From Elusimicrobiota bacterium (lineage in GTDB: Bacteria; Elusimicrobiota; UBA8919), in the NCBI GenBank assembly GCA_043816185.1, contig JBDRIG010000010.1, forward strand, positions 1 to 48,449: a stretch of DNA of 48,449 nucleotides. Direction: 5' to 3'. The notes beneath the pieces are model-generated. The model searched no databases and was not told the DNA's origin. It saw only the letters and a program-made list of their open reading frames with translations. The position numbers and the translations under genes are program-made. Positions 7,968-48,305 of the stretch are shown here, in pieces (positions within the stretch are counted from its first letter, which is position 1; every line of letters starts with the position of its first letter).

Positions 7968-7988
7968 TAATGACGAATGAGGACAATA

Positions 7989-18718: not shown

Positions 18719-19423
18719 ATGTTATCAAAAGAAAAAATAGAAAAAATCAGTTCAGAAGTTAAGAAATGTTGGGAACAAGAATCGCAAAAGGAGTATTTTA
18801 TTGATATTGCGAAAGGCAAAGAGATAGGGCATCGTCTCGCCGACCTTGTTGACGAAAAGACAACGGCTGTAATTACCATAAATCATTTGACAAAAAGTCA
18901 GTATGATGGTAGAGGTGAAAAACGTTCACGGTCTATGGGCGATATATGGGTTAAAGATTTTCAAATATATCATCCTGTAAATGTAAAGACGGGTATTGTG
19001 GGGCACGAGGGACAACCAAATATGGTATCACTGAAAAAAATATTGGATGCTATAATCAACAGATGTATTGATAGTTATTATTTGCTAATGGTGAAATTTG
19101 AAATCAGTTCCAAAATATCTTCATCGGTATATTTTGTTGATATGCTGAATTATATTGATTTTTTATCTTTTGATTCCGGACCCGGGCAAGTTATGCTTAA
19201 TGCAAAAAAGTTTATTGAAAATTATGAAACATATAAAAAACCAAATTTAGAAATAAAACAAAAGGTAGAACAACTTATGGTTTTATATAAAAACGCTGAA
19301 TATAGATTGAGGCAAAATAGAAAAAGAGTATTTAGCATGTATAAATCTAAAGTTGATCTATTTCTTGAAAGTGATGAAATTGTAGTAACCACAGAAACAC
19401 AATCTGCTTTACTATTAAAATGA
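18719..19423 (+). CDS. putative type II restriction endonuclease (assigned mainly by context)
   Basis: 234-aa ORF whose stop overlaps the start of the methyltransferase gene (ATGA). Possible PD-(D/E)xK-like core GDIWVKDFQIYHPVNVK (Asp ... N-V-K). No family recognised. Confidence 0.4.
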   Translation: MLSKEKIEKISSEVKKCWEQESQKEYFIDIAKGKEIGHRLADLVDEKTTAVITINHLTKSQYDGRGEKRSRSMGDIWVKDFQIYHPVNVKTGIVGHEGQPNMVSLKKILDAIINRCIDSYYLLMVKFEISSKISSSVYFVDMLNYIDFLSFDSGPGQVMLNAKKFIENYETYKKPNLEIKQKVEQLMVLYKNAEYRLRQNRKRVFSMYKSKVDLFLESDEIVVTTETQSALLLK

Positions 19424-21138
19424 GCATAGCGAGAATAAACCGTGAATCTAAAAGACAATTAGGACAGTTTTTGACGCCACCTTTGTTGGCAAAAAAAATA
19501 GTTGAAACCATAAAAATACAAAACGACAGCAAGATATTAGAACCGAGTTTTGGTAATGGCTCTTTTGTTTTTCCATTGGTTGAATATCTAAAGAAAGCAG
19601 GGCGTCGATCAAAAGACATATCACAACAAATATATGGATGTGAAAAGGATAATAAACTTTTTTCGCAGTTTACAAAACACATTTCTGCTTTGTATGATAA
19701 TAAATATACTCTAACAAATTTTCATAACACCGATTTTTTTAAATGGATACCTCAAGACAAACAAATTGACTTTTTAGATTATAGTACATATATAAAAAAT
19801 AACTGGGGATATTTTGATTTAATCATCGGTAATCCTCCTTTTGGAGGCACTATTGAATATGCTATACAGGATAAACTTGATAAAATATATGGTTATCGTG
19901 GGTATGAAAAGATAAAAAAAGAGACATATTCGTTCTTTCTTGTTAAATCGTTTGACCTTCTTAAGCCGAAAGGTCAAATGGTTTTTATATGTTCCGATAC
20001 TTTTTTAACAATAAATACAATGAAGGGTTTAAGAAAACTATTGATGGATAATTGCGATGTTGAAATTGAAAGTATCCCTGACTGCTTTGCTGATACAAAT
20101 CAAAATATGGTTCTTCTAAAAGTTATCAAGACCGGGAAAAAGTCATTGTATATCAAGTTTAAAGATAAAATTATTTTGCGTGAAAATATTGAAAAAACCC
20201 CAAATTTAAGTTGGAATATAAGTGATGAATATACGAAGTATTTCTCTGGTGATGTTTTAGGAAATTATATTGTTGCAACAAGTGGAATGACGGTTGGCAA
20301 TAACGAACTATTTATTCGTAAAATCATTGATGGTTATATTTATGAACCATTTAAGTTTGAGTTTTTTGATGAACCAATCACATTAGAAAATGAAAGAAAA
20401 AAAGCACGGTTGAATAAATTAAGCAAGTTCCAGGGAAAAAAAATAAGACAACAAGAAATCAATGGCGACACTCAACGAAATGTTAGATGGGAACAAGTAG
20501 CGTCTTCCAAAAGAATAAAAATTCCAGATGCACGATATTGCTATTACAATAAAGCAAACAATGAAATAGTATACAGTAAACCGCAATGGGTTGTTTTTTG
20601 GGAAAACGACGGTGATGCAGTTCGTACTTTTAAAAAAAATGGTAATTGGTATTTAAATGGTATCGGGGGACAGAAGTACTTTAAAAGGTCAGGATTTACA
20701 TGGTCATTGATAGCAAACAAAATACATACTAAGTTTTTATCAGAGGGTTATATTTTAGATAGTGGGTCACCGTGTGCTTTTTTACGAGACGGTATTGGTG
20801 ATGATGAACTGTATTTTATCATGGCGTGGACACTTACTAAACGATGTAATGAAATTTTAAAACAAGTAATTAATCATACAAGAAACATTCAGGGTAAAGA
20901 TGTTGAAAGGTTACCTTATCCGTCATGGGTAGATTGTCACGATAAGCATTTAATCATTAAAAAAATGAAAAACTTGATAAATAATGCATGTTTGGGAAAA
21001 CGATATGTATTTGATGATTTAGAGATTAGAGAGTTTGATAATGATTTTGAATATAACGAAATAAATACTCACAAAAACAAACAAATAGATAAAAAAGTGT
21101 CATTATTTGATATGCCGTTCAACATGTGGGCAAGATAA
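19420..21138 (+). CDS. N6-adenine DNA methyltransferase (gamma class, Eco57I/TaqI-like)
   Basis: LGQFLTPP, AdoMet motif ILEPSFGNGSF and catalytic motif IIGNPPFGG in gamma-class order. Long C-terminal region, presumably target recognition. Confidence 0.8.
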   Translation: MSIARINRESKRQLGQFLTPPLLAKKIVETIKIQNDSKILEPSFGNGSFVFPLVEYLKKAGRRSKDISQQIYGCEKDNKLFSQFTKHISALYDNKYTLTNFHNTDFFKWIPQDKQIDFLDYSTYIKNNWGYFDLIIGNPPFGGTIEYAIQDKLDKIYGYRGYEKIKKETYSFFLVKSFDLLKPKGQMVFICSDTFLTINTMKGLRKLLMDNCDVEIESIPDCFADTNQNMVLLKVIKTGKKSLYIKFKDKIILRENIEKTPNLSWNISDEYTKYFSGDVLGNYIVATSGMTVGNNELFIRKIIDGYIYEPFKFEFFDEPITLENERKKARLNKLSKFQGKKIRQQEINGDTQRNVRWEQVASSKRIKIPDARYCYYNKANNEIVYSKPQWVVFWENDGDAVRTFKKNGNWYLNGIGGQKYFKRSGFTWSLIANKIHTKFLSEGYILDSGSPCAFLRDGIGDDELYFIMAWTLTKRCNEILKQVINHTRNIQGKDVERLPYPSWVDCHDKHLIIKKMKNLINNACLGKRYVFDDLEIREFDNDFEYNEINTHKNKQIDKKVSLFDMPFNMWAR

Positions 21139-27481: not shown

Positions 27482-28489
27482 ATGACTATGAAAAAAATTA
27501 GCGAGACGTCCGACGTAAATCTTGTTGAAAAACTTGTTGAGGCAAAGATGGCAATTATTGAACAATTAAGAAATGTTATTGTTGGTCAGCAGGATGTAAT
27601 TGATCAGCTTTTAATTTCGCTTTTTGCCAAAGGGCACTGTCTTATCGTTGGTGTTCCAGGTCTTGCCAAAACACTTATTGTTTCCACAATTTCACAAATT
27701 CTGAATTTACAATTTTCAAGAATTCAGTTTACGCCAGACCTGATGCCGTCGGATATCACAGGAACAGAAGTTATTCAGGAGAATATTTCAACAGGCGAAC
27801 GTACATTTAAGTTTATAAAGGGTCCTATTTTTGCCAGCATAGTTCTTGCCGATGAAATTAATCGCACTCCACCAAAAACGCAGTCAGCACTTTTACAAGC
27901 GATGCAGGAATATAAGGTAACTGTTGCGAGGCAAACCTATCAATTGCCCGATCCATTTTTTGTTTTAGCAACCCAAAATCCGATTGAGCAAGAAGGAACG
28001 TATCCATTACCAGAAGCACAGTTGGATAGGTTTTTCTTTCAAATAAATATAGATTATCCGTCGCAAGACGACGAAAAAGAAATTATTAGAAAAACAACTG
28101 GAACGTATTTGCCACAGACAAAAAGCATACTAAGTTCAAGTGAAATTTTGGCATTACAGGAAATTATAAGAAAAGTACCTGTTAGTGATTATGTGATCGA
28201 TTATGTTATTAGGCTTGTTTCTGAAAGTCGTCCAAAAAATTCATCATTTGATTTTATAAAAAAGTGGATAAACTGGGGAGCAAGTCCGAGAGCATCACAG
28301 AATTTTATACTTGCGGGAAAAGCAAGAGCAGTGTTAGACGGAAGATACACTGTTTCCGTTGAGGATATAGAGCATGTTGCGTATTCTGTTTTGAGACACC
28401 GTCTTATTCTAAACTATACAGCCGAAGCAGACGGGTTGACATCTGAGGAAATTATAAAAAAATTGCTGGAAAACGTAAAACCAAAATAA
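27482..28489 (+). CDS. moxR: MoxR-family AAA+ ATPase
   Basis: Walker A GVPGLAKT, Walker B VLADEINR, ATQNPIEQEGTYPLPEAQLDRF. About 330 aa, as in MoxR. Confidence 0.9.
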   Translation: MTMKKISETSDVNLVEKLVEAKMAIIEQLRNVIVGQQDVIDQLLISLFAKGHCLIVGVPGLAKTLIVSTISQILNLQFSRIQFTPDLMPSDITGTEVIQENISTGERTFKFIKGPIFASIVLADEINRTPPKTQSALLQAMQEYKVTVARQTYQLPDPFFVLATQNPIEQEGTYPLPEAQLDRFFFQINIDYPSQDDEKEIIRKTTGTYLPQTKSILSSSEILALQEIIRKVPVSDYVIDYVIRLVSESRPKNSSFDFIKKWINWGASPRASQNFILAGKARAVLDGRYTVSVEDIEHVAYSVLRHRLILNYTAEADGLTSEEIIKKLLENVKPK

Positions 28490-28565
28490 GGCGATAAATC
28501 GATAAAATTTTTCTGTATAACCATATAACGATGCAGGTGTATCGATATATCGATGTTTAATATTT

Positions 28566-29453
28566 ATGAAATCATATCTTGATCCGTTGGTCGTTGCCAA
28601 AATTTCAACAATGTCCTTAAAGGCAAAATATGTTGTTGAAGGTTTTATTTCAGGACTTCACACCAGCAAATTTAAGGGTCATTCGTTAGAATTTGCCCAA
28701 CACAGAGAGTACTCGTTTGGCGACGAACCAAAGCATCTTGATTGGAAAGTTTTTGGAAAATCAGACAAATTTTTTATTAAACAATATGAGGAAGAAACAA
28801 ATCTTAAAGCATACATATTGCTCGATGCGAGTGGTTCAATGGGTTATAAATCAGGTGGCATCTCCAAATTAGAATATGGTTCCTATGTTGCTGCTGCACT
28901 TTCATATCTTATGATAAAACAGGGGGATGCTGTTGGGTTGGTCGTCTATGGTACTGAAATAAAAAAAAATATTCCACCGCGGTCAAATTTAAGTCACTTA
29001 TCGGTTATTTTTGATGAACTTTCAAAAACGACACCTTGTGGTGAGACCGATATTTCAAAAATGCTCAATGGTTTTTCTAAAAAACTTAAAAAAAGAGCAT
29101 TGATAATTTTAATTTCAGATTTATTTGATGATCAGGAAAAAATAATTAAAGCAGTAAAAAGTTACAGATTTGCTAAAAATGATGTTATTATATTTCACGT
29201 TATGGATGAAATTGAGGAAAATCTTAACATTGACGGAAATGTTCAATTTAAATGCATGGAAAACAAAGATTTTTTAATTACGGAACCAAAAATTATAAAA
29301 GATAAATATCAAAAAATTATTTCTGAATTTATTGAAAAATACAAATCAGAATTTAGAAAAAATGATATAAGTTACTCCTACCTTAACACTTCATCGCCAC
29401 TTGATTTATCATTGACAAATTATCTTTCAAAAAGGGAAAAGTTTCTAATATGA
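28566..29453 (+). CDS. DUF58-family protein (vWA-like, MIDAS motif)
   Basis: FAQHREYSFGDEPKHLDWKVFGKSDKFFIKQYEEE signature. MIDAS LLDASGSM. Immediately downstream of moxR. Confidence 0.85.
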   Translation: MKSYLDPLVVAKISTMSLKAKYVVEGFISGLHTSKFKGHSLEFAQHREYSFGDEPKHLDWKVFGKSDKFFIKQYEEETNLKAYILLDASGSMGYKSGGISKLEYGSYVAAALSYLMIKQGDAVGLVVYGTEIKKNIPPRSNLSHLSVIFDELSKTTPCGETDISKMLNGFSKKLKKRALIILISDLFDDQEKIIKAVKSYRFAKNDVIIFHVMDEIEENLNIDGNVQFKCMENKDFLITEPKIIKDKYQKIISEFIEKYKSEFRKNDISYSYLNTSSPLDLSLTNYLSKREKFLI

Positions 29454-31381
29454 CATTTCTTAATTCTGCTTTTCTCTTCGGTCTAACAGCCGTTTCGATA
29501 CCAATAATAATTCATTTACTTTCCAAAAAAAAACCAAGAATTATTAATTTTAGTGATTTAAGATTTTTGGAACTTGCCGCTCGTCAGTATGTGAAAAAAT
29601 TCAGAATACGACAGTACTTGCTTCTTTTAATAAGATGTCTTTTAATAGGTATCCTTACATTTATTTTTGCTAGACCTGTAATGCATTATGTTTCTTCGTC
29701 TAAGAATACTGAAACAGTTTTTCTTATTGATAATTCTTACTCTATGGATTATTATAAAGACGGTAAAACACGGCTTGAAGATGCAAAAAATGTTGTAAGG
29801 CAAACCCTCAATTTGTTAAACCCACAGGAAAAAATTACAGTATTTTCCTTTTCGGATACAGTAATACCTGTTGTAAAAAATCCTACAACAGATAAAGATT
29901 TAGTAATAAAAGAGGTAGAAAGAATAAAAATTGAGTATAAAAAGGCAAATATTACAAGTGCCATAAATAGTATTAAAAACTATTTCCAAAATAATAATAT
30001 AGAAAGAAGAATTATTATTGTTACCGATTTTGCAAAAAATAGTTGGACACAAAAAAAAGACGTTGAATCGCAAAATTATAAAATCGTTTGTATTGATGTT
30101 GGTGACAATAATGCTAAAAATTTTGCAGCATCAGATCTTGTTGTCGACGATAACAAGATAAGATTTTGTGTTTCGAACTATTCCAACGATAAGAAAAATA
30201 TTTCCGTTGATTTATATATTGATGATCAAATATATAAATCAACATTTCTTAAAACATATCCACATAAAGTTTCCGAAGCAACGTTTGATGTAAAAAATAT
30301 TCAAAAAGGAATTCATAAATGTTTTATTGACATTGAACCAGATAAACTTCTACCCGATAATAAATATTTTTTTGCATTTAATTATAAAGAAAAACCAAAA
30401 GTTTTACTGGTAGACGGCCATCCTCAATTTTCTGATTTTAATGGCGAAACTTTTTTCTTAAAGACAGCACTTACAAATTATTCTGATATTAAAGTTATAA
30501 ATTTTTCACAATTCGAAAACGAAGAAACAAACTACTCTATCTTATTTTTCTGTAATGTTTCTAACTTTACCAAAAATGAGGTCTTAAAGTTAAAAGATCT
30601 TATGTTAAACAACAGATATCTTGTTTTTTTTCTTGGTGACAAAATTTTAGACGAAGAATATAATACGAAAATATCTTTTTTATTACCATGTGAAATATCG
30701 TCTATTTTAAGCAACGGCCAATTATCGAACTACAATTTGTTTGAAAATAAAGAAATAATAACGGATGAAAATATTCATATTGATAAAAGATTTCTGTTAA
30801 TTCCTAAATATAACTCCGAAGTACTATTAAAGTTTACCGATGGTACACCACTTTTAATCAAAGGCAAAAACAATGTTTTTACCTTTGCAATATCTGCAAA
30901 TCTTTCGTACTCCGATATACCAATAAGACCTATTTTTCCTGTTATTATAAAACAACTTTTCAGTTATTTTTTAGATAACAATATTTTAATAAAATCGGCA
31001 AATATACAAGATACGTATTTAAAGACAGAAGAAACAGTTTCCGAAGTTGTTTTGCCGGACTATAGAACGGTGAAAAATTCAAATGAAATTTTATTTGAGA
31101 AAGCTGGCGTGTATGAAATTAGATATAAAAATCATAAAACGGAGTATGTGAATATAAATCCTGATACTAAATCTGGCGAATCCGATTTGACAAAAATAGA
31201 TGCAATAGAAATTAAAAAAATATTTGATAAAATGTTTAGTGGGGTGGTAATTATGGACGACAATTTTGAAAATAAGATGAAAAAAATATTATATGGCAAC
31301 GAAATAACAAAGTATCTTTTATTGCTTTTGTTGATGCTTTTTATAGTTGAAACACTACTTGCAAACTGGAAAAAATTATGA
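29450..31381 (+). CDS. BatA-like protein (N-terminal double-TM aerotolerance-type domain plus vWA)
   Basis: FLNSAFLFGLTAVSIPIIIHLL N-terminal domain. MIDAS FLIDNSYSM. C-terminal TM helix. ATGA overlap with the DUF58 gene. Confidence 0.7.
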   Translation: MTFLNSAFLFGLTAVSIPIIIHLLSKKKPRIINFSDLRFLELAARQYVKKFRIRQYLLLLIRCLLIGILTFIFARPVMHYVSSSKNTETVFLIDNSYSMDYYKDGKTRLEDAKNVVRQTLNLLNPQEKITVFSFSDTVIPVVKNPTTDKDLVIKEVERIKIEYKKANITSAINSIKNYFQNNNIERRIIIVTDFAKNSWTQKKDVESQNYKIVCIDVGDNNAKNFAASDLVVDDNKIRFCVSNYSNDKKNISVDLYIDDQIYKSTFLKTYPHKVSEATFDVKNIQKGIHKCFIDIEPDKLLPDNKYFFAFNYKEKPKVLLVDGHPQFSDFNGETFFLKTALTNYSDIKVINFSQFENEETNYSILFFCNVSNFTKNEVLKLKDLMLNNRYLVFFLGDKILDEEYNTKISFLLPCEISSILSNGQLSNYNLFENKEIITDENIHIDKRFLLIPKYNSEVLLKFTDGTPLLIKGKNNVFTFAISANLSYSDIPIRPIFPVIIKQLFSYFLDNNILIKSANIQDTYLKTEETVSEVVLPDYRTVKNSNEILFEKAGVYEIRYKNHKTEYVNINPDTKSGESDLTKIDAIEIKKIFDKMFSGVVIMDDNFENKMKKILYGNEITKYLLLLLLMLFIVETLLANWKKL

Positions 31382-32112
31382 AAAACAAAAAATTGTTTTT
31401 TTCACTATTCACTATTTATTACTCGCTATTTGCTATTCACTATCTTTCCGCTCAACAAGACGGCAAATTTGTTTTTGCACAATTATCGTACTCTGGTAAT
31501 TGGGATACTCGGGCAACTGCTTGGGATAAAATATTGAAATTTTTGACCGTCTCAACAAGCGTAAAAAGCATCAGCGAAAGAAGAATTGTTCAAATTAAAG
31601 ATGAAGAACTTTTTTGGTCGCCATTTTTGGTAGTTACTGGCGATTGCAGTTTTGTAATAACCGATGATGAAATAAAAATTCTTAAAAAATATATTCAATG
31701 TGGCGGAATGATTTTTATTGACGATTCATCTAATAAAAAAGATTCAATTTTTAACAAATCAGTAAGAAATATGGTCAATAAAATATCGCCAGAAAATCCA
31801 CTTACAAGAATTCCAATTTCGGATGCTATATTAAAATCGTTTTATCTGCTACAGGATATCTCTGGTAGGGTAATAACAAACAAATATTTAGAGGGTTGTA
31901 AAATAGGCGATCGTTACAGCATTATTTATTCGCAAAATGATTTATTGGGTGTGTGGGAAGAAGATAATCTCGGAAATTACATTTATTCTTGCAATGATAA
32001 ACAGAGATGGGAGGCAAAAAAAATGACGATAAACATTATAATGTATTCTCTTACTGGAACATATAAATCGGACGCAATCCATCTGCCTTTTATAAAAAGT
32101 AAAACCCGTTAG
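31378..32112 (+). CDS. DUF4159-like exported protein
   Basis: Signal peptide, then FVFAQLSYSGNWD... and GGMIFIDD segments resembling DUF4159, which is typical of these operons. ATGA overlap with the upstream gene. Confidence 0.6.
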   Translation: MKNKKLFFSLFTIYYSLFAIHYLSAQQDGKFVFAQLSYSGNWDTRATAWDKILKFLTVSTSVKSISERRIVQIKDEELFWSPFLVVTGDCSFVITDDEIKILKKYIQCGGMIFIDDSSNKKDSIFNKSVRNMVNKISPENPLTRIPISDAILKSFYLLQDISGRVITNKYLEGCKIGDRYSIIYSQNDLLGVWEEDNLGNYIYSCNDKQRWEAKKMTINIIMYSLTGTYKSDAIHLPFIKSKTR

Positions 32113-32242
32113 AGAACTCCATATTTTTTTGCAAGAGCGTATACTTGTGGTAACTTTTTTGATTGATTAAACTGGAATAAACTCCGCTTTTTCTGAAAAT
32201 AATGAGTAGGTGCGGAAATAAAGATACTGGAGAAATGGCTGA

Positions 32243-34291
32243 ATGAAAAGGACATTTTATATTTTAAGAATCGCTATATTCATACTAATAGTTTTTCTTA
32301 TAATTCAGCCAAAAAGAAAAATTTATAAATTGAGAAGTACTAAAACCGTAGCGGTTTTGGTGGACGATTCTCAAAGCATGCAAAATATCTTTGACAAAAA
32401 AATTTTTTTTAAATTAAAAAAAATAATGTCTAATTTTGCTAAATCACCAAAGATAAATTTTATTTTTTTTAAATTTTCTGACGATATAAAGAATATTGAA
32501 ATATCAGATATTGAAAAACTTACAGCAACTGAAACTAAAACAGACATTGTTGGAGCACTCGAAAAAGTAGATAAAGAATTTTTAGGCAAAGATCTGGACG
32601 CTGCAATTTTGTTTTCTGATGGAAATCAAAATGTAGAAAAACCTGCCGATGAAATAATTAAAAAATTTTCCGAATTAAATATACCTATCATTACCGTCGT
32701 TCCTCAAACTATTTTAGCGAAAAAAAATATATCTATTGGCAAAATTGATGTGCCAGATGTGGCTTTTAGAAATACTGGGCTAACGGTTTCTGTAAAAATT
32801 CATACTTGTGGTTTTGTGGGTCGTAAAATATCTGCATATTTGAAATCAGAAGAAACTGTTTTACAGAGCAAATTGCTTGATATTGTAAGCGATGGTGTTG
32901 TAGATGTTGATTTTGACATAGAGCCACAAGTTGCAGGAAATATTGATTATTCGATAGTAGTGCCCACATATTCTCAAGAAAAGAACATAAACGATAACAA
33001 GAAAAAATTTACAATTAGTGTAGAACCAGAAAAAATTCGCATTCTGTATTTGTGTGGACAGCCATCATTCAACTATTCGTTTTTGAGAAACACACTTAAA
33101 AACGACCCAAATGTTGAACTTGTTTCATTTGTAATTTTAAGAAATCCTGAAAACATAATTCCCGTTTTTGATAATGAACTTTCGCTTATACCTTTTCCGG
33201 TAGATGAAATTTTTTCAAAAGAAATTTTTAATTTTGATCTTTTAATTTTAGATAATTTTAATTATTCCAAATTCACGATAAACTATCAATACCTTGCGAA
33301 TATAAAAAATTTTGTTGTTGCGAACGGTAAATCTCTCTTTGTGATTTCTGGCGATCTTCCTTTATCAGTGTACCAAAACACACCAATTGCTGAACTGTTA
33401 CCTGTAAACGTATCGTCGGAAATTGTCCCGCAGAAATTTCAAATTACAGTTTCACATCCTGAGCATAGTATTGTGAAATTATCAGACGATGTATCAATCA
33501 ATAGTTGTATTTGGAAAGAAATGCCCGAGTTGAACAGCATAAACGTTTCTTCTATGAAAGATAAAAGCGTTATGCTTATTAAGAGCGAGAAATCAAACTA
33601 TCCCGTTGTGGCAATTTCTGAGTGTGGTAAAGGACGCGTTATGTGTAGTATGACACAATCATTGTGGCGATTGGCATTAGGCAGTGAAAATCCATATAAT
33701 TATGTCAAACTAATAGGACAGTCAATTAAATGGCTTACAAATGCTGCCTCTATAAAACAGGTAGTTATTTTTACAAAAAAAAATTATAACGTAAACGATA
33801 TTGCCACTTTAAAAATTCGCGTAAAAGATGAATATTTTAAACCAGTAAATGATGCGATGGTTTATCTTAAAATACTTTTGCCCAACGGTAAATGCGAGCA
33901 GGTTGAAGCCTTCCCTGAAATGGAAAATGGAGAATATCGTGCGAATATCGAATTGTCTTTTTCAGGGAAATATAAAATTACTGCCAAAGCATTTGAGAAA
34001 AAAAGATTTTTAGATAGCGACGAAAATTCTTTTACAGTTTTTGATGTTTCAAGAGAATTAGAAGACATTAATGTCAATGAGCACTTTATGAAAGAAATTG
34101 CAAGTAAAACCGCAGGAAAATTTTTTACAATGAATAATTTTAGCATAGAAGAGTTAGACATAAAACCCAAAACTACAAAATTAGATATTCTATCTGAAAT
34201 AAATATATGGGACAAAATGCCAATCTATTTAATTTTGATTTTTTTATTTGCTCTTGAGTGGTTTTTAAGACGACGAGATGGTTTACTATAA
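32243..34291 (+). CDS. membrane-anchored vWA-like protein
   Basis: N-terminal and C-terminal TM helices. MIDAS-like VLVDDSQSM. Operon context. Confidence 0.5.
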   Translation: MKRTFYILRIAIFILIVFLIIQPKRKIYKLRSTKTVAVLVDDSQSMQNIFDKKIFFKLKKIMSNFAKSPKINFIFFKFSDDIKNIEISDIEKLTATETKTDIVGALEKVDKEFLGKDLDAAILFSDGNQNVEKPADEIIKKFSELNIPIITVVPQTILAKKNISIGKIDVPDVAFRNTGLTVSVKIHTCGFVGRKISAYLKSEETVLQSKLLDIVSDGVVDVDFDIEPQVAGNIDYSIVVPTYSQEKNINDNKKKFTISVEPEKIRILYLCGQPSFNYSFLRNTLKNDPNVELVSFVILRNPENIIPVFDNELSLIPFPVDEIFSKEIFNFDLLILDNFNYSKFTINYQYLANIKNFVVANGKSLFVISGDLPLSVYQNTPIAELLPVNVSSEIVPQKFQITVSHPEHSIVKLSDDVSINSCIWKEMPELNSINVSSMKDKSVMLIKSEKSNYPVVAISECGKGRVMCSMTQSLWRLALGSENPYNYVKLIGQSIKWLTNAASIKQVVIFTKKNYNVNDIATLKIRVKDEYFKPVNDAMVYLKILLPNGKCEQVEAFPEMENGEYRANIELSFSGKYKITAKAFEKKRFLDSDENSFTVFDVSRELEDINVNEHFMKEIASKTAGKFFTMNNFSIEELDIKPKTTKLDILSEINIWDKMPIYLILIFLFALEWFLRRRDGLL

Positions 34292-34304
34292 ATTTACAAT
34301 ATAA

Positions 34305-37300
34305 ATGAATAATATACAGAAATTGTTATTAGACGCAAAAAGAAAAATAATTTTTTTACTTATTGTTAAAAATATTACAATAATATTTATTTCTATATTT
34401 TTTGTTGTATTTATCAATTATTTTGCCGATATTTTAGTCGTATCAACCCATCTTTTTAGACTGATTATATGGTTAATTGCCGTAGGTTTTTCCATTTATC
34501 TATTAGTAGAAATAATTTTGAAAATAAACTATTTAAAACATTCTGACGAGCAAATTGCGATTTTACTTCAGAAAAAAAATCCTACTTTGAAGGATAACCT
34601 CATAAATGCAATACAACTTAAACTAACTAAAAAAATAGAAACTTCGCAAGAACTTGCCGAGAAATTTATAGAACAAACGTCGCAAAAAATCTCACCCAAT
34701 TTATCTAAAACGGTTATTAATTTTGGCTCGATAAAAGGCATTTTTATAATTTTTTTTGTAGTTTTTATTAATTTTGTTTTGTTTTATAAATCGTTTCGAC
34801 TTAATAGATACCTTATGCCTTTTAAGAATGATATAAAAGTTTCTGTTATTCCTGGCAATATTGCTATTACTTCTGGAAGTACGGTGAATGTTTACGCAAC
34901 TGTTAAATTTGAAAAATCGACGCCGAATCTTGTTTTTAGGGAAATTGATGGTAATTGGCGTAAAAATAAAATGAAAAAAATTGCACCAGATAAATATAGC
35001 GAAACGATTGAAAAAATTACAGATGATATTGATTATTATATTGAAGTATTGGACGATCGGTCTCAAAGGTATAGGATTAAAATTGTTGCCCCTTTGACAA
35101 TTGCGGACATCAAACTCGAATATTTTTATCCACCGAACACTGGTTTACAAAATAAGATAGTCAATGAAACTGACATAGAAGCACTCGCGGGAACGACGGT
35201 AAAAATTTCCGCCAGAGCGAATAAAAAAATTAAAGAAGCATTTTTATTTTCGTCCGCTATGCGCTCCGTAGCTTATTACGAGGATAAGGTTACGAGAGCA
35301 GAAACCTTATTGCCTTGTAACTCAGCACAAGATGGTTCGTCGGCCGATATCGTGGAAAAAAATAAAATGGAACTTATCCAAGTAGATACTTTTGAGAAAG
35401 AAAATATTCTTACATCTACAATTGTAATAGGAAAGCAAAGTTGTTTTTGGTTTGAAGTAAAATCTATTGATGATGAAGATTATCAGTCAGTAAAGTATAA
35501 AATTAAAGTTATTAAAAACAATCCTCCTATTGTTGAAATAGTATCTCCTGCTTTTGATGTTGCAATTTCAGAAAATGGAATTTTAAAGATTGTTTATTCT
35601 GCGGAAGATGATTTTGGAATTAAAAAAATAGAAATAGATTACCTAACACTTAAAAAGAAAAACTTGATAAAATCATTTTCAAAACCACAACAAAAAATAA
35701 TTGATGATTACGAAATTGCCATATCAGATTTAGCATTAAAGTCTGGAGACACTATTCAATATCAATTAATCGTTACCGATAATAATATTTATCCATTCCC
35801 GCTGGTAGGAAATTCAAAAATTTATACTATTGAAGTTTTATCACTTGAAATGGAACACAAAATTATAGAAAATGCTTTGGTAGATTTTAATAATGAACTT
35901 CAGGAAATATTGTCAAAACAACTTCAAAGTAACACAATGTTTACCAAACATGATTTTGAAAATGCTCTGAAAATGCAAAAAGATGTACAGGAATCGACAT
36001 CCGCAGAAACTGATAATTTCCAAAAAGTGCTTGAAAAAATGAAAGATGACTCGCTAACTACTTATCAGACATACAATGAATATAAAAATTTATCGCAGGC
36101 GTTATCAAATTTGGAAAAACAAAAAATGCAAGATGCAATAAATATGCTTTCTGATAAACAATATGATCAAGCGGGACAAAAACAAGATGAAATAGCCGAC
36201 GAAATCAAACGGCTTTCGGAAATTTCGGAAAATATTCTGAAAAGTCAAAAAATGGAGGATTTAGTGTCCACCGTTGCAGAAATGAGTGGCATTTCAACAG
36301 GTATAGAAAAAAATCTCAATAATATGAAAGCAATGCCGAATGTTGAAAAAATGAAAGAACTTAAAAAAACAATGGAAAAACTTTCAGAATTGACGAACAA
36401 GTTAGCAGAAAAAATTTCAAAAATGCCGAAGGAACTCCCTAACGATTTTACGAACAATAAAAATGTGAAAAAGATTGATCTTGCCAAAATGCGGTTTACT
36501 GCGGATGAAATGAAATGGACGCTTGAAGCGGGTAACATAGATAAAGCAATTGAACTTGCCAAAAAATTAAACCAACAAATTTCTGATATGCTTAGTTCTG
36601 TTGAAAATGCATCGCAATCTGTTTCGCATAAAGATAACGCAGAGCTTGAATTAAAATTAAACAAATTATCATCGGAATTAAACGAAATTGTTGAAACACA
36701 AAAAAATATTATTACAGATACCCAAAAAATTGATGTCAGACGACTTGAAAAAATTCTTGTTTTACAAAAAGAACTTATTAAAAAATTAGTGGAATTACAG
36801 AAACAGTCGATCTCAAAACTTCAAAACTCAAAAATGATGTTGAAAAAAAACAATGAAGTGGCAGCGAATATCCATAATTTGTATAATTCACCAGAAATTA
36901 AAATGAACACTATCTTGCAAGAATTCATAACCGAAAAAATCAACAAATCACGACAGCTATTGACGGCTACAATAAGCGAACTCGATACGGTTTATAGAAA
37001 TATACATTTTAAAGAACCTGCGGAGTATCTTTTGGAGAGTAAGTTATTGGAGGAAAAAATTCTCTCTGAACTTACAGATTTTTCACCAAATAAAACCACG
37101 ATTTTCAGTAATGAAGATTTTGAAAGACACAAAAAATTATCGGAAACACAAAGACTAAATCAACAAAAAATAGGCGGCATAAAACAAAATCTTCTTGAAT
37201 TGGCAAATAAAACAACATTGGTGTCGTTGGAGACAATTGAGGGTATTTTATCATCGGAAAAATCAATGGAGGGAGCATCGGGAGAGCTTCTAATCTCAAA

Positions 37301-37622
37301 TATATTATCGGCAATTGATTTTGAAAAAAAGGCATTAGACGATTTATTAAATAGTAAAGATGCGTTAGATAAAACATCAAGCCAGATGAAATCTATTATG
37401 GGTGAGTCAATGGCTGGTAGAACAATGCAAAGAATCAGAATGCGTGGGAATGATAGTGGCGGTTCTACTGGTTTTAGAGGCAGATTTGTTAAAATACCGT
37501 CCAAAGATGACTACAGGCCACCGAAAGAATTCAGGGAAGAAATTATTAAATCATTAAGACAAAAATATCCACAAAAATATGAAATGCTAATAAAGGATTA
37601 TTTCAAACGTCTCGTTGAGTAA
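34305..37622 (+). CDS. 1105-aa membrane protein with long coiled-coil region (DUF4175-like)
   Basis: Three N-terminal TM segments. About 500 aa of Lys/Glu/Gln/Leu-rich heptad-like sequence. C-terminal KYEMLIKDYFKRL resembles the tail seen in DUF4175 proteins of Bat-like operons. Confidence 0.5.
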   Translation: MNNIQKLLLDAKRKIIFLLIVKNITIIFISIFFVVFINYFADILVVSTHLFRLIIWLIAVGFSIYLLVEIILKINYLKHSDEQIAILLQKKNPTLKDNLINAIQLKLTKKIETSQELAEKFIEQTSQKISPNLSKTVINFGSIKGIFIIFFVVFINFVLFYKSFRLNRYLMPFKNDIKVSVIPGNIAITSGSTVNVYATVKFEKSTPNLVFREIDGNWRKNKMKKIAPDKYSETIEKITDDIDYYIEVLDDRSQRYRIKIVAPLTIADIKLEYFYPPNTGLQNKIVNETDIEALAGTTVKISARANKKIKEAFLFSSAMRSVAYYEDKVTRAETLLPCNSAQDGSSADIVEKNKMELIQVDTFEKENILTSTIVIGKQSCFWFEVKSIDDEDYQSVKYKIKVIKNNPPIVEIVSPAFDVAISENGILKIVYSAEDDFGIKKIEIDYLTLKKKNLIKSFSKPQQKIIDDYEIAISDLALKSGDTIQYQLIVTDNNIYPFPLVGNSKIYTIEVLSLEMEHKIIENALVDFNNELQEILSKQLQSNTMFTKHDFENALKMQKDVQESTSAETDNFQKVLEKMKDDSLTTYQTYNEYKNLSQALSNLEKQKMQDAINMLSDKQYDQAGQKQDEIADEIKRLSEISENILKSQKMEDLVSTVAEMSGISTGIEKNLNNMKAMPNVEKMKELKKTMEKLSELTNKLAEKISKMPKELPNDFTNNKNVKKIDLAKMRFTADEMKWTLEAGNIDKAIELAKKLNQQISDMLSSVENASQSVSHKDNAELELKLNKLSSELNEIVETQKNIITDTQKIDVRRLEKILVLQKELIKKLVELQKQSISKLQNSKMMLKKNNEVAANIHNLYNSPEIKMNTILQEFITEKINKSRQLLTATISELDTVYRNIHFKEPAEYLLESKLLEEKILSELTDFSPNKTTIFSNEDFERHKKLSETQRLNQQKIGGIKQNLLELANKTTLVSLETIEGILSSEKSMEGASGELLISNILSAIDFEKKALDDLLNSKDALDKTSSQMKSIMGESMAGRTMQRIRMRGNDSGGSTGFRGRFVKIPSKDDYRPPKEFREEIIKSLRQKYPQKYEMLIKDYFKRLVE

Positions 37623-43323: not shown

Positions 43324-43346
43324 TTTTTCCAAAATTTTGTTAATAT

Positions 43347-43430
43347 GGGCAGGTGGCGGAGCGGCCAATCGCAACAGACTGTAAATCTGTCGGGCTGTGC
43401 CCTACGAAGGTTCGAATCCTTCCCTGCCCA
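43347..43430 (+). tRNA. tRNA-Tyr (anticodon GTA), class II with long variable arm
   Basis: Folded by hand. 7-bp acceptor stem gggcagg/cctgccc, 3-bp D stem, 5-bp anticodon stem acaga/tctgt with loop ctGTAaa, variable arm gggc-tgt-gccc, T arm gaagg-ttcgaat-ccttc, discriminator A. CCA is not encoded. Confidence 0.85.
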
Positions 43431-43584
43431 TTGTTTTAATTTTATTGTATTGAAAACTGGTTGTTGTCTTGCTTCTTTTTTGCTTCTCGTAGGCATGGTT
43501 CTTCAACCGTACGTCGTCGTGCGTGATGCGTATTGCGTATGGCGTCATGTGTTTGTAGGCATGGTCTGCGACGCATTTGTCATT

Positions 43585-43701
43585 GAGACTGTGTCACAAT
43601 CCATCTTTTACCATCTAGTGTTGGATTGTAGTACCATATTTTACCATCAGTTACTATCTTCTATAAAAATGCAACTTTTTAGCTCATTGCGACACAGTCT
43701 G
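43585..43701 (-). mobile_element. MITE-like element (family A), copy 3, inverted
   Basis: Reverse complement matches 27206-27322 with about 5 substitutions. Lies about 155 bp downstream of tRNA-Tyr. Confidence 0.8.
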
Positions 43702-43814
43702 ATTGCGAGCGGCCTTGTATTGTGAGCGAAGCGAAGCAATCTCGAACGGCACGCAAATAAGTTAGTGCCTACAACTTCTTACTTCTCTGCTCCTTTGACT
43801 CTCGTATTAAAAAA

Positions 43815-44474
43815 ATGCAAAAAGTAAAAATTAGTGGATATTATTTTATCACCGACGAAAATTTAAGTAAAGCAGGAAATATTTTGGATGTAAAAAATGC
43901 GGTTTCATCTGGTGTAAAAGTTGTTCAGTATAGAAATAAAAGTGGCTCGACAAAAGAAATGTACGATGAAGCACTTGAATTAAAAAAAATCTGTCGTAAA
44001 TCAAAAGATGTGATTTTTCTAATAAACGATCGAATAGATATTGCAGTTGCATCTAATTCCGACGGTGTTCATATTGGACAAGGTGATATGCCGTATCCTG
44101 TTGCAAGAAAAATTTTAGGCAAAAACAAGATTATCGGCGTTACCGTTCACACTGTTAAAGAAGCAAGAGATGCAGAAAAATTGGGTGCGAATTATATTAG
44201 TGTCGCACCCATTTTTTTAACAAACACAAAAAAAGATGCAAATAAACCCGTCGGAGTTTCGCTCATAAATAAGATAAAATCCTGTGTAAGTGGGACAATT
44301 CCAGTTATAGCAATTGGTGGAATAAATCTATTAAACGCAAAAGAAGTTATAGAGGCGGGTGCTGATGGACTGTGTGCTATATCGTCGGTAGTTACTAAAA
44401 ATAATGTCAAAAAAGAGATAAAAAAAATTCAAAAACTAATACAAAATAATACGGAAATTAAATATGCAAATTAA
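43815..44474 (+). CDS. thiE: thiamine-phosphate synthase
   Basis: YFITD..., VVQYRNK, INDRIDIA, DGVHIGQGD and IAIGGI motifs of ThiE. Confidence 0.85.
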   Translation: MQKVKISGYYFITDENLSKAGNILDVKNAVSSGVKVVQYRNKSGSTKEMYDEALELKKICRKSKDVIFLINDRIDIAVASNSDGVHIGQGDMPYPVARKILGKNKIIGVTVHTVKEARDAEKLGANYISVAPIFLTNTKKDANKPVGVSLINKIKSCVSGTIPVIAIGGINLLNAKEVIEAGADGLCAISSVVTKNNVKKEIKKIQKLIQNNTEIKYAN

Positions 44475-44627
44475 ATTTGTGAACCAACAAACTCCTTCTG
44501 ATAAGACAGAAAAAACCATAGAAGGTATTTTCCGAATGGCTAGTCAGATAATGTTTAATTATTACATTATAGTATTGAAGAAAGATATTCGACAAATTGA
44601 GAACAAATACACCGTATCGTTAACAAA

Positions 44628-45101
44628 ATGACCAATACACCTTATACTACTGAGTATTTAAGATTTCTTGAAACACTTGACAAAAATAAAGTGGATTATT
44701 TGATTATTGGTGCGTACGCCACAATGATACATACTAAAGAACCACGTGCCACTAAAGATATAGATACATGGGTACGACAAACGGAAGAAAACACTAAAAA
44801 ATTAAGTGCTGCACTGAAAGAATTTACCGGCGAAATAATTTCGCCGGAAACCATTATGCGAAAGGATCAAAAAATAGAAATAAAAAGTGAGACATTTAAA
44901 ATTGAAATATGGACGTCTCAAGAGATAATTACCTTTGAGCAGGCATGGGAAAAGAAAAAAACAGAATTGGTCGCCGGATTTACTATTACCGTTATATCAA
45001 AAGAAGATTTAATAAAATTAAAAAAACATTTTAATAGACCACAAGACAAGTTAGATGTTTTCTTGCTTGAATCAAAAGATATTCACAAAAAAACGGAATA
45101 G
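44628..45101 (+). CDS. small nucleotidyltransferase-fold protein of unknown function
   Basis: VDYLIIGAYATMIHTKEPRATKDIDTWV (Gly-rich strand-turn plus D-x-D) and C-terminal VISKEDLIKLKKHFNRPQDKLDVFLLE resemble minimal NTase-fold proteins often found in toxin-antitoxin or defence contexts. Confidence 0.55.
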   Translation: MTNTPYTTEYLRFLETLDKNKVDYLIIGAYATMIHTKEPRATKDIDTWVRQTEENTKKLSAALKEFTGEIISPETIMRKDQKIEIKSETFKIEIWTSQEIITFEQAWEKKKTELVAGFTITVISKEDLIKLKKHFNRPQDKLDVFLLESKDIHKKTE

Positions 45102-45152
45102 ATTTTACAATGCAAAAAAAAAGTATCTAAAAAATTCAAAGGGAGGTAAAGT

Positions 45153-46538
45153 ATGGAACAGAAAAATCTTGATTTTGTTAAAAAGTATTACAGTGACCCA
45201 AAAATAAAGGAACTCATTCTTTCGCAGTCACAAAATTATAGTTACTGTGTGGGAACAGGTGTAACGCTGCTTGAACAGGGTTGGACATTTCCTATAAAAG
45301 AAGTTGGAATTTCGCAGATTGAAGAACTTTTGAACGAGGGATTAGATATATCCTTTCCGATACGATGTAAAGACGATAATTATTTATATATCGTGTGGGA
45401 TATAAAATATTTCAACACAGAAAATCCTAATTGGATTTTTGATAGAGTAAACCAGAAAAAAATATTTGAATTAGGAAGTCCGATTTTTGAAGCAGTAGAA
45501 GAAACGCTTGATTCATTCGGCATAAAATATCTTGTAGATATTACAGTGTCGGGAATACATGTATGGTCAAAAATAAAAGTATCGTCGGAAGCATTTTGTA
45601 AATTTGCCAGCGAAAGCAACCTTTTTCCATCGCTTGAGCAAAAGTATACACAAATTATACCAGAAGACAAAAAAAGAACGAGACCTGTTTCTTTGGATTT
45701 GGGTAGAGCGTATAACACAGCAGGAAAAATACTTGAATATTTTTCTCACATTTTGATTGATAAAAGTAAAGAATTTAAAATCCCTATAACTGTTTCTGGT
45801 GCTGCGTCATTTAGTAAAAATTTTTCGTTTTCTGGCATTTCATCAGATTTGTCACAATACAGCCATCCAATATATATGAGATGTATGCGGGCTTTTTGTT
45901 CTCTCCATCAGAAATCAGTGATGAATGGTTTTTCTGAACTTGGATCTGCGGTTAACATAATTAAAACGAAAGAAATTTCTTACGTAGATTCGCTTGAAAT
46001 AATGTGGAACGTCGATAAAGCACTAAATTTTTACAATAAAAATTTTAAAAAGAAAAAAATTGATGTTCCAGATTCCTCGCAAGGGTGGCTTGAAGCGTTT
46101 AATTCATATACAAAAAGCGAGTTGAGAAAGAAGCATAAGATATGGGAAAGGATACCCGCAACAAAGAAGGATTGTGATTTAACACAGCCAGATGTAAAAA
46201 AGTTTTTTGAGCCTGCGAATGCCAATCCTGCTCTTTTGATACCGAGCAATTTACAGATTATAGTAAACCATTTTGCTTCAAGTGGTGTTTCAGCGGTGAA
46301 AAAAGTTTTTTCCATAATCGCTAAATATTATGCCGATAAAATGCTTGGATGGTATGATTATTTAAAATTTACAGGAATAAACTGGGATAAATACGACCCC
46401 GAAACTGTTAGTGATTTCTGGGGAAGAATATATTGGTCGTTAAACATTCCAAGTGTTCCAAAAAATGTTCAGAATGTTCCAAAATCCAGCAAAAGTCAAA
46501 AAAAACAAAAAAAGCAGAAACGAAAGAATGGCAAGTAA
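45153..46538 (+). CDS. hypothetical protein with archaeo-eukaryotic-primase (AEP)-like motifs and a poly-Lys C-terminal tail
   Basis: GGGAGG RBS; 461 aa. Candidate AEP motifs: I LYIVWDIKYF, II ITVSGIHVWS, III SSD-x10-RCMRAFCSLHQKS. Tail KSSKSQKKQKKQKRKNGK. Confidence applies to the CDS being real; the functional call is tentative. Confidence 0.7.
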   Translation: MEQKNLDFVKKYYSDPKIKELILSQSQNYSYCVGTGVTLLEQGWTFPIKEVGISQIEELLNEGLDISFPIRCKDDNYLYIVWDIKYFNTENPNWIFDRVNQKKIFELGSPIFEAVEETLDSFGIKYLVDITVSGIHVWSKIKVSSEAFCKFASESNLFPSLEQKYTQIIPEDKKRTRPVSLDLGRAYNTAGKILEYFSHILIDKSKEFKIPITVSGAASFSKNFSFSGISSDLSQYSHPIYMRCMRAFCSLHQKSVMNGFSELGSAVNIIKTKEISYVDSLEIMWNVDKALNFYNKNFKKKKIDVPDSSQGWLEAFNSYTKSELRKKHKIWERIPATKKDCDLTQPDVKKFFEPANANPALLIPSNLQIIVNHFASSGVSAVKKVFSIIAKYYADKMLGWYDYLKFTGINWDKYDPETVSDFWGRIYWSLNIPSVPKNVQNVPKSSKSQKKQKKQKRKNGK

Positions 46539-46545
46539 TGAATGA

Positions 46546-47940
<1,395 letters not shown>

Positions 47941-47994: not shown

Positions 47995-48189
47995 TTACAA
48001 TTTCGGTAGCAACTTGGCGACCGAATTAAGTTTATCTAAAGGTGTCTGATAGTTCAGTGCTAAATGTCTTCTTTGATAATTATAGCTATACATAAAGTTG
48101 TTAAGTTCAGCGATGAAATCGGTTTTTGAAAGAGAAACAGTTTGAAGTCTGATACACTCATTATACAATATTTTCCAGAATCTTTCAAT
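47995..48189 (-). pseudogene. C-terminal fragment of an rve (integrase-core) type transposase
   Basis: Minus strand reads IERFWKILYNECIRLQ...FMYSYNYQRRHLALNYQTPLDKLNSVAKLLPKL-stop (the IERF..., YN..R.H.AL...P tail of rve transposases). The upstream part is replaced by the repeat array that starts near 48190. Confidence 0.7.
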
Positions 48190-48194
48190 CTAAC

Positions 48195-48305
48195 GTATCA
48201 AACATGTAAAATCTAACCCGTATCAAATCATGTAAAATCTAACCCGTATCAAATCATGTAAAATCTAACCCAAGGGGTCATCGTCAAATCATGTATAATC
48301 TAACC
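48195..48305 (+). repeat. tandem 25/26-bp direct repeats forming the left end of an IS
   Basis: gtatcaaacatgtaaaatctaaccc (48195-48219), gtatcaaatcatgtaaaatctaaccc twice (48220-48271), and a degenerate copy (48277-48305). Followed by an aatctaacc / ggttagatt inverted repeat abutting the transposase ATG. Confidence 0.8.

Follow-up and report, generated by a model that had tools for sequence, protein, structure and literature searches.

A predicted primase-like gene and a mobile nucleotidyltransferase cassette between thiE and purA of an Elusimicrobiota bacterium

In this work we have analyzed the region between thiE and purA in a stretch of 48,449 nucleotides from an Elusimicrobiota bacterium (GenBank assembly GCA_043816185.1, contig JBDRIG010000010.1, positions 1 to 48,449 of the forward strand); we refer to this whole stretch as the window. 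The region contains, on the plus strand, a 55-codon open reading frame (ORF; 44464-44631), a gene for a 157-aa minimal nucleotidyltransferase (NTase) of the DUF6036 or AbiEii-like type with an intact catalytic signature (gene 1; 44628-45101) and, after a gap of 51 bp, a gene for a 461-aa protein (gene 2; 45153-46538) which is a B-type member, as defined below, of a superfamily that has the predicted fold of the archaeo-eukaryotic primases (AEPs) and no Pfam model. We consider it probable that gene 2 is an AEP-like gene native to this locus and that the NTase gene and the small ORF form an unrelated mobile cassette, the two having become neighbors through a replacement event. A first-pass annotation, made from the letters of the DNA, had instead joined genes 1 and 2 in a single orphan island; the features that it described (the ORFs, the ATGA overlap between the small ORF and gene 1, the peptide blocks of gene 2 and its C-terminal tail) are all in the sequence.

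Results

Fold and motifs of the gene 2 protein

The AlphaFold2 model of the gene 2 protein, built from an alignment of its homologs, has a pLDDT of 85.4 and a pTM of 0.86, and the pLDDT falls below 50 only in the loop 218-225 and in the tail (residues 432-461). When this model was compared with the PDB using Foldseek, ranks 1-34 were occupied exclusively by AEPs, among them LigD-Pol from M. tuberculosis and P. aeruginosa, Prim-PolC from M. smegmatis, CAPP, and human and yeast Pri1. The best match was 3pky_B (E=5e-4), with 6sa0_A at E=6.9e-4, both at a probability of 1.00, a value shared by the top 12 matches, whose target-normalized TM scores were 0.43-0.52. Weaker primase matches (the TOTE primase domain, RepB and DUF927 primases) were obtained with a library of viral structures.

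AEPs are defined by the motifs hhhDhD/E, sxH and hD/E (PMC5862659). In gene 2 they can be recognized in the peptide blocks LYIVWDIKYF, SGIHVW and SSD, and a fourth block, RCMRAFCSLHQKS, is also present. Motif I corresponds to D83-I-K85 (45399-45407, +), with a lysine at the second metal-ligand position where relatives have D-x-E or D-x-D; motif II to S133-G-I-H136 (45549-45560, +), with the nucleotide-binding histidine of sxH; and motif III to S230-S231-D232 (45840-45848, +), whose aspartate would be the third catalytic acidic residue. In the model these motifs map to the beta-strands 77-88, 134-142 and 227-232, respectively, with motif III at the end of its strand. A basic block follows, R243-x-x-R246-x-x-x-S250-x-H252-x-K254 (45879-45914, +), which is RxxRxPFSxHxK in canonical members of the family.

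Conservation was examined in two alignments, one of gene 2 with its close homologs (A1; 25 sequences in all) and one of 50 diverse superfamily members (A2). The columns of H136, S230-S231-D232, R243, R246, S250, H252, Q253 and K254 are invariant in A1, and D83, H136, D232, R243, R246, S250 and K254 are invariant or nearly invariant in both sets. The A2 consensus of motif I is hhhhD-[IVF]-[ED]-Y-x-N, in which the first D is found in 50/50 members and the second position is E in 42, D in 6 and K in 2. Motif II has its G in 50/50 and its H in 48/50, motif III its D in 50/50, and the basic block R243 in 50/50, R246 in 49/50, S250 in 45/50, H or Y at position 252 in 46/50 and K254 in 49/50 (gene 2 numbering; R243, R246, S250 and K254 are R240, R243, S247 and K251 in the numbering of the member P0048). 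Canonical members read LDIEYFN, TGQGYHF and RxPFSTHQKHK. The motifs of gene 2 lie on strands, as they do in AEPs, and fit the AEP definition (PMC5862659), and we conclude that the protein, as modeled, has an AEP fold and that its three blocks, judged from their conservation, are not a product of chance. The first-pass annotation had therefore compared gene 2 with the right proteins and had picked the right motif residues, which are the ones conserved in the homologs. The lysine that it pointed out in motif I is indeed present in the window copy but is not a trait of the family.

The catalytic region is followed by a conserved C-terminal helical domain (45960-46445, +), which in the clade of the window gene is devoid of four cysteines that are invariant in canonical members, and by a tail rich in Lys, Gln and Ser (46446-46535, +). 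This tail, which had been described as suited to nucleic acid binding, is present in the sequence but is found in none of the 24 close homologs and is modeled as disordered.

Size and distribution of the gene 2 family

No match to gene 2 was found in Pfam, NCBIfam, PADLOC or PHROGs, nor among PDB sequences with phmmer. The 24 close homologs are 49-61% identical to gene 2; no Pfam domain was found among them, and those with a named source are all proteins from metagenome-assembled genomes (MAGs) of Elusimicrobia or Endomicrobiia. An exhaustive profile search collected 198 representatives at 50% identity, of which 100 had E<=1e-10 and most were 430-490 aa long. The source names of the family are all 'hypothetical protein' and the hosts are MAGs of Candidatus Aureabacteria, Hydrogenedentota, Schekmanbacteria, Euphemobacter, the PVC group and Elusimicrobia. 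None of the Pfam, NCBIfam, PADLOC or PHROG models matched family members, and a permissive Pfam scan of 50 members revealed no recurrent family.

The profile of the B-type proteins hit 16 of 185,579 species-representative genomes, with a patchy distribution even inside Elusimicrobia. Furthermore, searches of 72,556 plasmids, 50,697 phages and IMG/VR found no member of the family, and with these zero matches we rejected an origin from mobile elements. A chromosomal, non-mobile family contrasts with what has been stated for bacterial AEPs, which are nearly always located on mobile elements with the exception of the LigD/LigC repair polymerases (PMC5862659). In the literature we found no paper on this family, on AEPs in Elusimicrobia or mentioning DUF6036. 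Apparently, this AEP-like superfamily is undescribed and restricted to uncultured bacterial phyla.

The native thiE-A-B arrangement

The order (thiM-)thiE-A-B is found in 14/14 of the close-homolog loci with upstream flank (L001, L003-5, L007-9 and L016-22), all from Elusimicrobia and belonging to 8 distinct lineages. In these loci B is the homolog of gene 2 and A is a paralog of ~451-460 aa, 26% identical to gene 2 (E=6e-25) and more canonical than B, as it contains LDIEYYN, TGQGYHYHS, RVPFSTHQKHK and the C-terminal Cys cluster. Tandem paralog pairs are also present in distant lineages (L010, L011/12 and L014/15), while distant B-type genes stand alone (L002, L006/26 and L024-L031), and one assembly has an A-like gene (L013) and a B-like gene (L025) that are not linked to each other. 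Because both members of the pair keep the catalytic residues, a heteromer of two active-looking subunits would be the simplest reading of the arrangement. The neighbors of A-B in the loci examined are housekeeping genes, and linkage to thi genes is confined to one narrow clade.

This gene order indicates that gene 2 is native to its locus, where it represents the B half of a conserved thiE-A-B unit. It was therefore not ancestrally alone, and the foreign segment is limited to 44446-45133, contrary to the proposal of a stand-alone gene in an orphan island. A tblastn search of the window detected neither A nor thiM, as a gene or as a remnant, and the presence of a decayed copy of either was rejected.

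Two further observations concern the distant pairs. In L010 and L014 the A-B pair is followed by a gene for a 609-657-aa protein without family match (11091-13064 in L010 and 7178-9007 in L014). In the same two loci, which belong to Aureabacteria-like lineages, a convergent gene for a Cas4-like PD-(D/E)xK nuclease comes next (13019-14212 in L010 and 8971-10164 in L014, both on the minus strand).

The nucleotidyltransferase cassette

The small ORF and the NTase gene constitute a cassette of ~690 bp (44446-45133, +) in the position held by paralog A in relatives. Its DNA is 82% identical over 691 bp to positions 5819-6509 of the locus L033 (GCA_028718185.1, contig JAQUMH010000018), which comes from the same genome as the best homolog of gene 2, on another contig. 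The NTase encoded there (P0291) is 85% identical to gene 1 and its gene follows a 55-codon ORF that overlaps it by 4 bases in the same way; this copy is located directly after a resolvase gene, in a neighborhood with small ORFs, a gene for an S24 repressor and one for a 2028-aa RadC-Eco57I-SNF2 protein. A third copy (L032) adjoins an NTP_transf_2 gene, which is followed by a 133-aa ORF. The 55-aa protein is 75% identical to the L033/L034 copy and 62% to that of L032, and is therefore the product of a real gene, with both the 55-codon length and the 4-base overlap kept. It matches no Pfam, NCBIfam or PADLOC family and gave one sub-threshold PHROG match (E=0.076), to which no function is assigned there. 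As an observation on the region of L033, the 2028-aa protein (1-2071) joins RadC, an Eco57I methylase and an SNF2/helicase, and this region, with the cassette and the resolvase, looks mobile.

The left edge of the cassette coincides with the usual stop of thiE: in relatives the protein ends in ...QKLF*, whereas the window thiE has an extra tail, QNNTEIKYAN, so that from ~44442 on the gene, with its final ~10 codons and the stop, derives from the cassette. On the right, homology ends at 45133, 20 bp upstream of the ATG of gene 2, and the ribosome-binding site (RBS) of gene 2 read from the sequence, AAAGGGAGG (45139-45147, +), remains in native DNA just beyond the cassette. A 12-nt exact direct repeat, AAAAAATTCAAA, brackets the cassette (44422-44433 on the left and 45129-45140 on the right), its right copy spanning the junction. 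Matches of at least 12 nt occur in 0.1% of equally spaced pairs of 60-bp windows of the contig, a frequency to be read with the caution that the test was defined after the repeat had been seen and that the left copy lies in an A-rich, low-complexity stretch. The repeat could be microhomology or a target site duplicated in the event that replaced A.

The NTase and the small ORF were found in 0/31 of the loci carrying AEP-like genes, which largely refutes a partnership between NTase and AEP. A suspicion that P0296 and P0008 shared one 6444-bp contig, which would have been a case of co-occurrence of the two, proved to rest on a coincidence. The comparison of the cassette copies indicates that the cassette is a discrete mobile unit, unlinked in function to gene 2.

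Gene 1 itself matches the Pfam family DUF6036 (PF19502) with 35.4 bits against a cut-off of 23.6 (E=1.2e-8), which bears out its description as a minimal NTase, and NCBI names the protein a DUF6036 family nucleotidyltransferase. The matches to AbiEii are weak (Pfam E=0.0055, 17.1 bits against a cut-off of 22.5; PADLOC E=0.002), and those to Aminoglyc_resit and DUF2204 are also weaker than that to DUF6036. The gene 1 protein has 28 homologs, mostly from Elusimicrobia. Its G28, R40, T42 and D46 are invariant and D44 is at least 90% conserved. They form a Pol-beta NTase signature with long spacing (G28-A29...R40-A-T-K-D44-I-D46; spacing 14), in which the second small residue of motif I, an alanine in this clade, is a glycine in distant ones. 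The C-terminal R137-P-Q-D140-K-L-D143 is conserved as well; the residue before D140 is Q, and R137 stands three before D140.

The window copy of gene 2

Several features set the window copy of B apart. Its motif I lysine (codon AAA, 45405-45407) occurs at this position in 2/50 superfamily members, the other 48 having E or D, and the second K-bearing member (P0049) is also without the motif II His. Moreover, gene 2 has 8 private substitutions at columns that are invariant in the other 24 members (F67S, G155S, D216G, P218A, D268N and LGR435-437VPK), whereas the others have 0-4, with a median of 1. The window gene represents a singleton lineage. The acidic residues of motif I have been found to be essential in every AEP tested (PMC5862659). 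Taken together, the loss of the adjacent A, the lysine in motif I and the highest number of private substitutions suggest that catalysis by the window B is probably impaired, and the gene would be either in decay or retained for a role other than catalysis; an impaired B under relaxed constraint would be the simplest reading of its sequence.

The same assembly contains a second B-type gene (P0007, locus tag ABID79_00795; the tag of gene 2, ABID79_00750, has the same prefix) on a 7374-bp contig. Its product is 57% identical to that of gene 2 and has an intact D-I-D in motif I, and it could belong either to a second locus, possibly an intact thiE-A-B, or to one of two populations binned together.

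A sister subfamily and the C-terminal domain

A third, C-type subfamily has the motifs HLDIEYVNF and SGRGHH, and a xylose-isomerase-like TIM barrel (PF01261, E=8e-36 and 3e-29) forms part of the same polypeptide in two of its representatives. A metagenome scan recovered 388 C-type relatives. In the best 80 loci (L035-L114) a TIM-barrel coding region lies immediately 3' and on the same strand in 66/66 of those with at least 500 bp downstream, although this count is biased toward loci with both because the query contained the TIM domain. The barrel is fused in ~5 of the 66 loci and is otherwise encoded by a separate gene (~280-297 aa), as in L035 (AEP-like protein, 6995-8449; TIM barrel, 8456-9295), and no other neighbor was recurrent. 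The TIM partner conserves SFHAPF, HPGP, EN, CLDTGHA, HxxDN, DxHxPPG and a late E, and its alignment to M. tuberculosis Endo IV showed that all nine positions of the trinuclear metal ligands of Endo IV type are kept. To our knowledge, the third-metal D-x-H and the HAP/HPG histidines of the Endo IV type (as in E. coli Nfo) are lacking in sugar epimerases.

Prim-PolC, the second-best structural match of gene 2, is a mycobacterial AEP whose task in base excision repair is to fill short gaps together with LigC, Endo IV being part of the complex (PMC5663958). With this precedent, the association of the sister subfamily with an Endo IV-like partner favors a repair role, and by analogy suggests that the family consists of repair primase-polymerases.

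The C-terminal domain of canonical members adds ~170 aa, modeled as a helical bundle (pLDDT 90), and contains four invariant cysteines, of which LPPC provides one and NCxSxxxKGxCxxxxCG the other three; all four are missing in the clade of the window gene. Primase helpers (the Fe-S domain of PriL/p58C, the pRN1 helix bundle and RepB') make up 11/19 of its weak fold matches. Pfam gave weak matches to DNA_primase_lrg (E=0.029) and RepB_primase_C (E=0.12), each in one member. The fold search was not significant, and we discarded it as a means of identifying the domain and keep it only as a lead.

Surroundings of the locus

The native gene thiE (43815-44474, +; thiamine-phosphate synthase, Pfam TMP-TENI E=2e-61) precedes the cassette, and purA (46609-47940, +; adenylosuccinate synthetase, Pfam E=5e-180), an unrelated housekeeping neighbor, follows gene 2; purA was found downstream of B in none of the related loci L001-L031. 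All five ORFs, from thiE to purA, are present at the coordinates given here, and the GC content of this region (0.30-0.34) is the same as that of its flanks. The contig as a whole is ordinary chromosomal core, with PFOR, TIM, DnaE, AccA, FBA, PFK, MnmA and IscS, and also MoxR-BatA, RnpA, YidC, Jag and tRNA-Tyr.

A search for a TPP riboswitch or other RNA upstream of thiE found only tRNA-Tyr. The 384-bp spacer (43432-43814) from tRNA-Tyr (43346-43431) to thiE is relatively GC-rich (0.42), with short internal repeats and a hairpin at 43515-43544, and has no Rfam match and no TPP riboswitch. It stands where relatives carry thiM, of which no remnant was found there.

In L003 and L007 a MoxR-DUF58-BatA/VWA (aerotolerance) operon lies directly 3' of A-B. 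In the window this operon (27482-37622) is found upstream of thiE, at a distance of ~8 kb, and B is followed by purA, which means that the locus has undergone rearrangement on its two sides. The end of the contig (47995-48449) consists of mobile-element debris, with a C-terminal fragment of an integrase core (rve; 47995-48168, minus strand), 3.4 copies of a 26-nt tandem repeat (48187-48271) and, from 48327 on, the beginning of a further ORF. Elsewhere in the window we noted a gene for an Eco57I/N6_Mtase-type DNA methyltransferase (19420-21138) amid AccA, FBA and PFK, with no obvious restriction partner, and two large ORFs without a significant Pfam match (9055-11178, 707 aa; 34305-37622, 1105 aa).

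Discussion

We propose that the ancestral order in this clade of Elusimicrobia was thiM-thiE-A-B, with A and B a vertically inherited pair of AEP-fold paralogs. The members of the family would be primase-polymerases that carry out two-metal nucleotidyl transfer, with the D-x-E/D of motif I and the D of motif III as metal ligands and with the NTP bound by the motif II His and the R..R..S.H.K block. A and B would probably act as a heteromer, the four-Cys helical domain may serve as an initiation or template-handling module, and the most likely role would be in DNA gap or end repair, not in replication. At the window locus, the mobile bicistron of ~690 bp would have replaced A, leaving a B copy that has lost its adjacent partner, carries a Lys at the second motif I ligand and is probably impaired in catalysis. 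By analogy with the AbiE and MenAT pairs of an NTase toxin and its antitoxin, the cassette is probably a selfish or defense-type toxin-antitoxin module.

A more ambitious version of this proposal can be put forward only tentatively. A, B and C would constitute an unrecognized chromosomal clade of two-component repair primase-polymerases with a PriL-like four-Cys (Fe-S or Zn) initiation domain in cis, and the window would record its dismantling by an NTase toxin-antitoxin cassette. The two-component forms would be either the A-B heteromer or a C-type protein with its Endo IV-like 3'-end/AP-site phosphodiesterase.

The resemblance to LigD-Pol (Prim-PolD) and to mycobacterial Prim-PolC is consistent with a repair role. 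These proteins are the best structural matches of gene 2, they have the three catalytic motifs in common with the family and they are also chromosomal and not mobile; in addition, Endo IV is part of the Prim-PolC repair complex (PMC5663958) and the sister subfamily is linked or fused to an Endo IV-like protein. In contrast, the family has no detectable sequence similarity to them, no Ku or ATP-dependent ligase nearby, an extra C-terminal helical domain, tandem paralog pairs and hosts that belong only to uncultured phyla. With PriS/PriL the family shares the AEP catalytic fold (the structural matches of gene 2 include human and yeast Pri1) and the RxxRxPFSxHxK block, which resembles the nucleotide-binding segment of PriS. 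Moreover, PolpTN2 is a fusion of PriS and PriL with a four-Cys helical domain after the catalytic one (PMC5862659), an order that is also that of canonical family members, and it is to PriL/p58C, the pRN1 helix bundle and RepB' that the C-terminal domain has its weak, non-significant matches. However, the partner here is a second AEP-fold paralog and not PriL, the PriL-like assignment is without statistical support (E=2.8), the window clade is devoid of the four cysteines, and the hosts are bacteria, expected to use DnaG.

As regards the cassette, the NTases of the AbiEii family are toxins encoded downstream of their antitoxin in a bicistron (PMC3985639), and their motifs I and II are hG[G/S]x15DhD, with an Arg inside II, and motif IV +DxxD (PMC3985639). 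The cassette resembles AbiE and MenAT (DUF1814) in being a bicistron with a small upstream gene that overlaps the start of the NTase gene and in its variable, mobile contexts, and gene 1 has motifs I and II, including the Arg, and motif IV in part (D140-K-L-D143). The toxin-antitoxin-like arrangement seen in the first-pass annotation is conserved in three contexts. The cassette differs from AbiE and MenAT in that gene 1 is only 157 aa long, belongs to DUF6036 and not to DUF1814 and scores below the AbiEii cut-off, and in that the upstream protein, of 55 aa, has no detectable similarity to the wHTH or COG5340 proteins. The HEPN-MNT systems (type VII) are similar in their minimal NTase, size and two-gene structure, and the L032 copy adjoins an NTP_transf_2 (MNT-type) gene, but the 55-aa partner has no HEPN match and the best family of gene 1 is DUF6036, not NTP_transf_2.

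Several points weigh against the explanation that we favor. The Foldseek E-values are modest (best 5e-4) with a query-normalized TM of only ~0.33, and a profile of 50 sequences found no AEP among PDB sequences; there being no sequence or profile link to known AEPs, it is the fold and the motifs that place the family among them. The repair role is inferred from the sister subfamily, and neither Ku nor ligase was found among the called neighbors in 18 annotated loci, with no helicase nearby either. As for the TIM partner, sugar epimerases score overall about like Endo IV, its closest solved relative is the uncharacterized MJ1311 (E=9e-28) and its best NCBIfam match is the cobamide-remodeling phosphodiesterase CbiR (E=1e-14 to 1e-17), below cut-off. 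We have therefore called it only Endo IV-like and have rejected a plain Endo IV, as all matches are below the curated cut-offs and MJ1311 is the nearest. The best fold match of the C-terminal domain, p58C, is not significant (E=2.8, probability 0.21). The toxin-antitoxin role comes by analogy only, and the 55-aa protein matches no antitoxin family. With respect to the window copy, E85K comes from one G-to-A change in the consensus of a MAG, for which an error of assembly could account; the divergence of B calibrated on thiE is high and suggestive but not a clear outlier (1.58 against 1.15 +/- 0.33), for which reason accelerated evolution was rejected; and, as A and B are unlinked in some genomes, this genome may encode A elsewhere.

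These last points bear on the alternative that gene 2 of the window retains full function, by itself or with an A encoded elsewhere, E85K being tolerated, compensated or an error of assembly. We regard it as somewhat unlikely. It would agree with the intact ORF, the strong RBS, the conservation of all other catalytic residues and the confident model, with B-type genes that stand alone in Endomicrobiia and other lineages, with the unlinked A and B of the assembly of L013 and L025, with the calibrated divergence and with the presence of P0007. The essential nature of the motif I acidic residues in the AEPs tested (PMC5862659) argues in the opposite direction, as do the rarity of K and its other occurrence in a protein that has also lost the motif II His, the 8 private substitutions, with D216G and D268N among them, and the replacement of the C-terminal LGR motif by a unique tail.

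It is rather unlikely, in our opinion, that the AEP-like fold serves no nucleic acid polymerization at all and acts in the nucleotidylation or processing of a small molecule or cofactor, the thiM-thiE and TIM-barrel linkages being then metabolic. The thiM-thiE-A-B order of all the close Elusimicrobia loci could be taken in this sense, but thi linkage belongs to one narrow clade and distant lineages have unrelated neighbors. Similarly, the CbiR match below cut-off and the scores of sugar epimerases are countered by the D-x-H and HAP/HPG histidines of Endo IV-type phosphodiesterases that the TIM partner keeps. The lack of helicase, ligase and Ku nearby and of sequence similarity to known primases is set against the conservation of the full set of AEP catalytic and NTP-binding motifs and against the Cas4-like PD-(D/E)xK nuclease beside the pair in L010 and L014.

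The first-pass annotation had proposed a single module for conflict, repair or priming, located in a variable island and built from the NTase and the AEP-like protein, with the small ORF as a possible third part; this now appears very improbable. Although the genes are adjacent, on the same strand and separated by short gaps, and both encode nucleotidyl-transfer folds, neither the NTase nor the small ORF was detected in any of the 31 loci with an AEP-like gene. The genome that encodes the closest homolog of gene 2 has the cassette, with its 85%-identical NTase, on another contig by a resolvase gene, and the L032 copy lies by an unrelated NTP_transf_2 pair. Furthermore, cassette homology stops 20 bp before gene 2, whose RBS is native, and the conserved partner of gene 2 is paralog A. 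Finally, that A-B is a replicative primase replacing or supplementing DnaG in these phyla, as its chromosomal, non-mobile and vertically inherited character and the two paralogs with a four-Cys helical domain loosely reminiscent of PriS/PriL might suggest, is the least credible alternative given its patchy distribution (16/185,579 species-representative genomes), the dispensability of A at the window locus, the repair-type phosphodiesterase paired with the sister subfamily and the uniform use of DnaG by bacteria (PMC5862659).

Returning to a native AEP-like gene beside an unrelated cassette, the interest of this work lies mainly in the family, as the B copy of the window is orphaned and probably impaired. 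The cassette adds a discrete mobile unit, a DUF6036 NTase bicistron of 690 bp whose 55-codon gene is easily missed. For the family, a set of proteins annotated only as 'hypothetical protein' gains an AEP-fold assignment: a non-mobile AEP family of ~200 clusters at 50% identity, present in hundreds of metagenomic loci from uncultured phyla and without a Pfam model. Its tandem paralogs, its four-Cys domain and the branch linked to an Endo IV-like protein point to an unrecognized DNA-repair primase-polymerase system. If the two-component reading were true, Elusimicrobia, Aureabacteria, Hydrogenedentota and related uncultured phyla would have a novel pathway of excision or gap repair.

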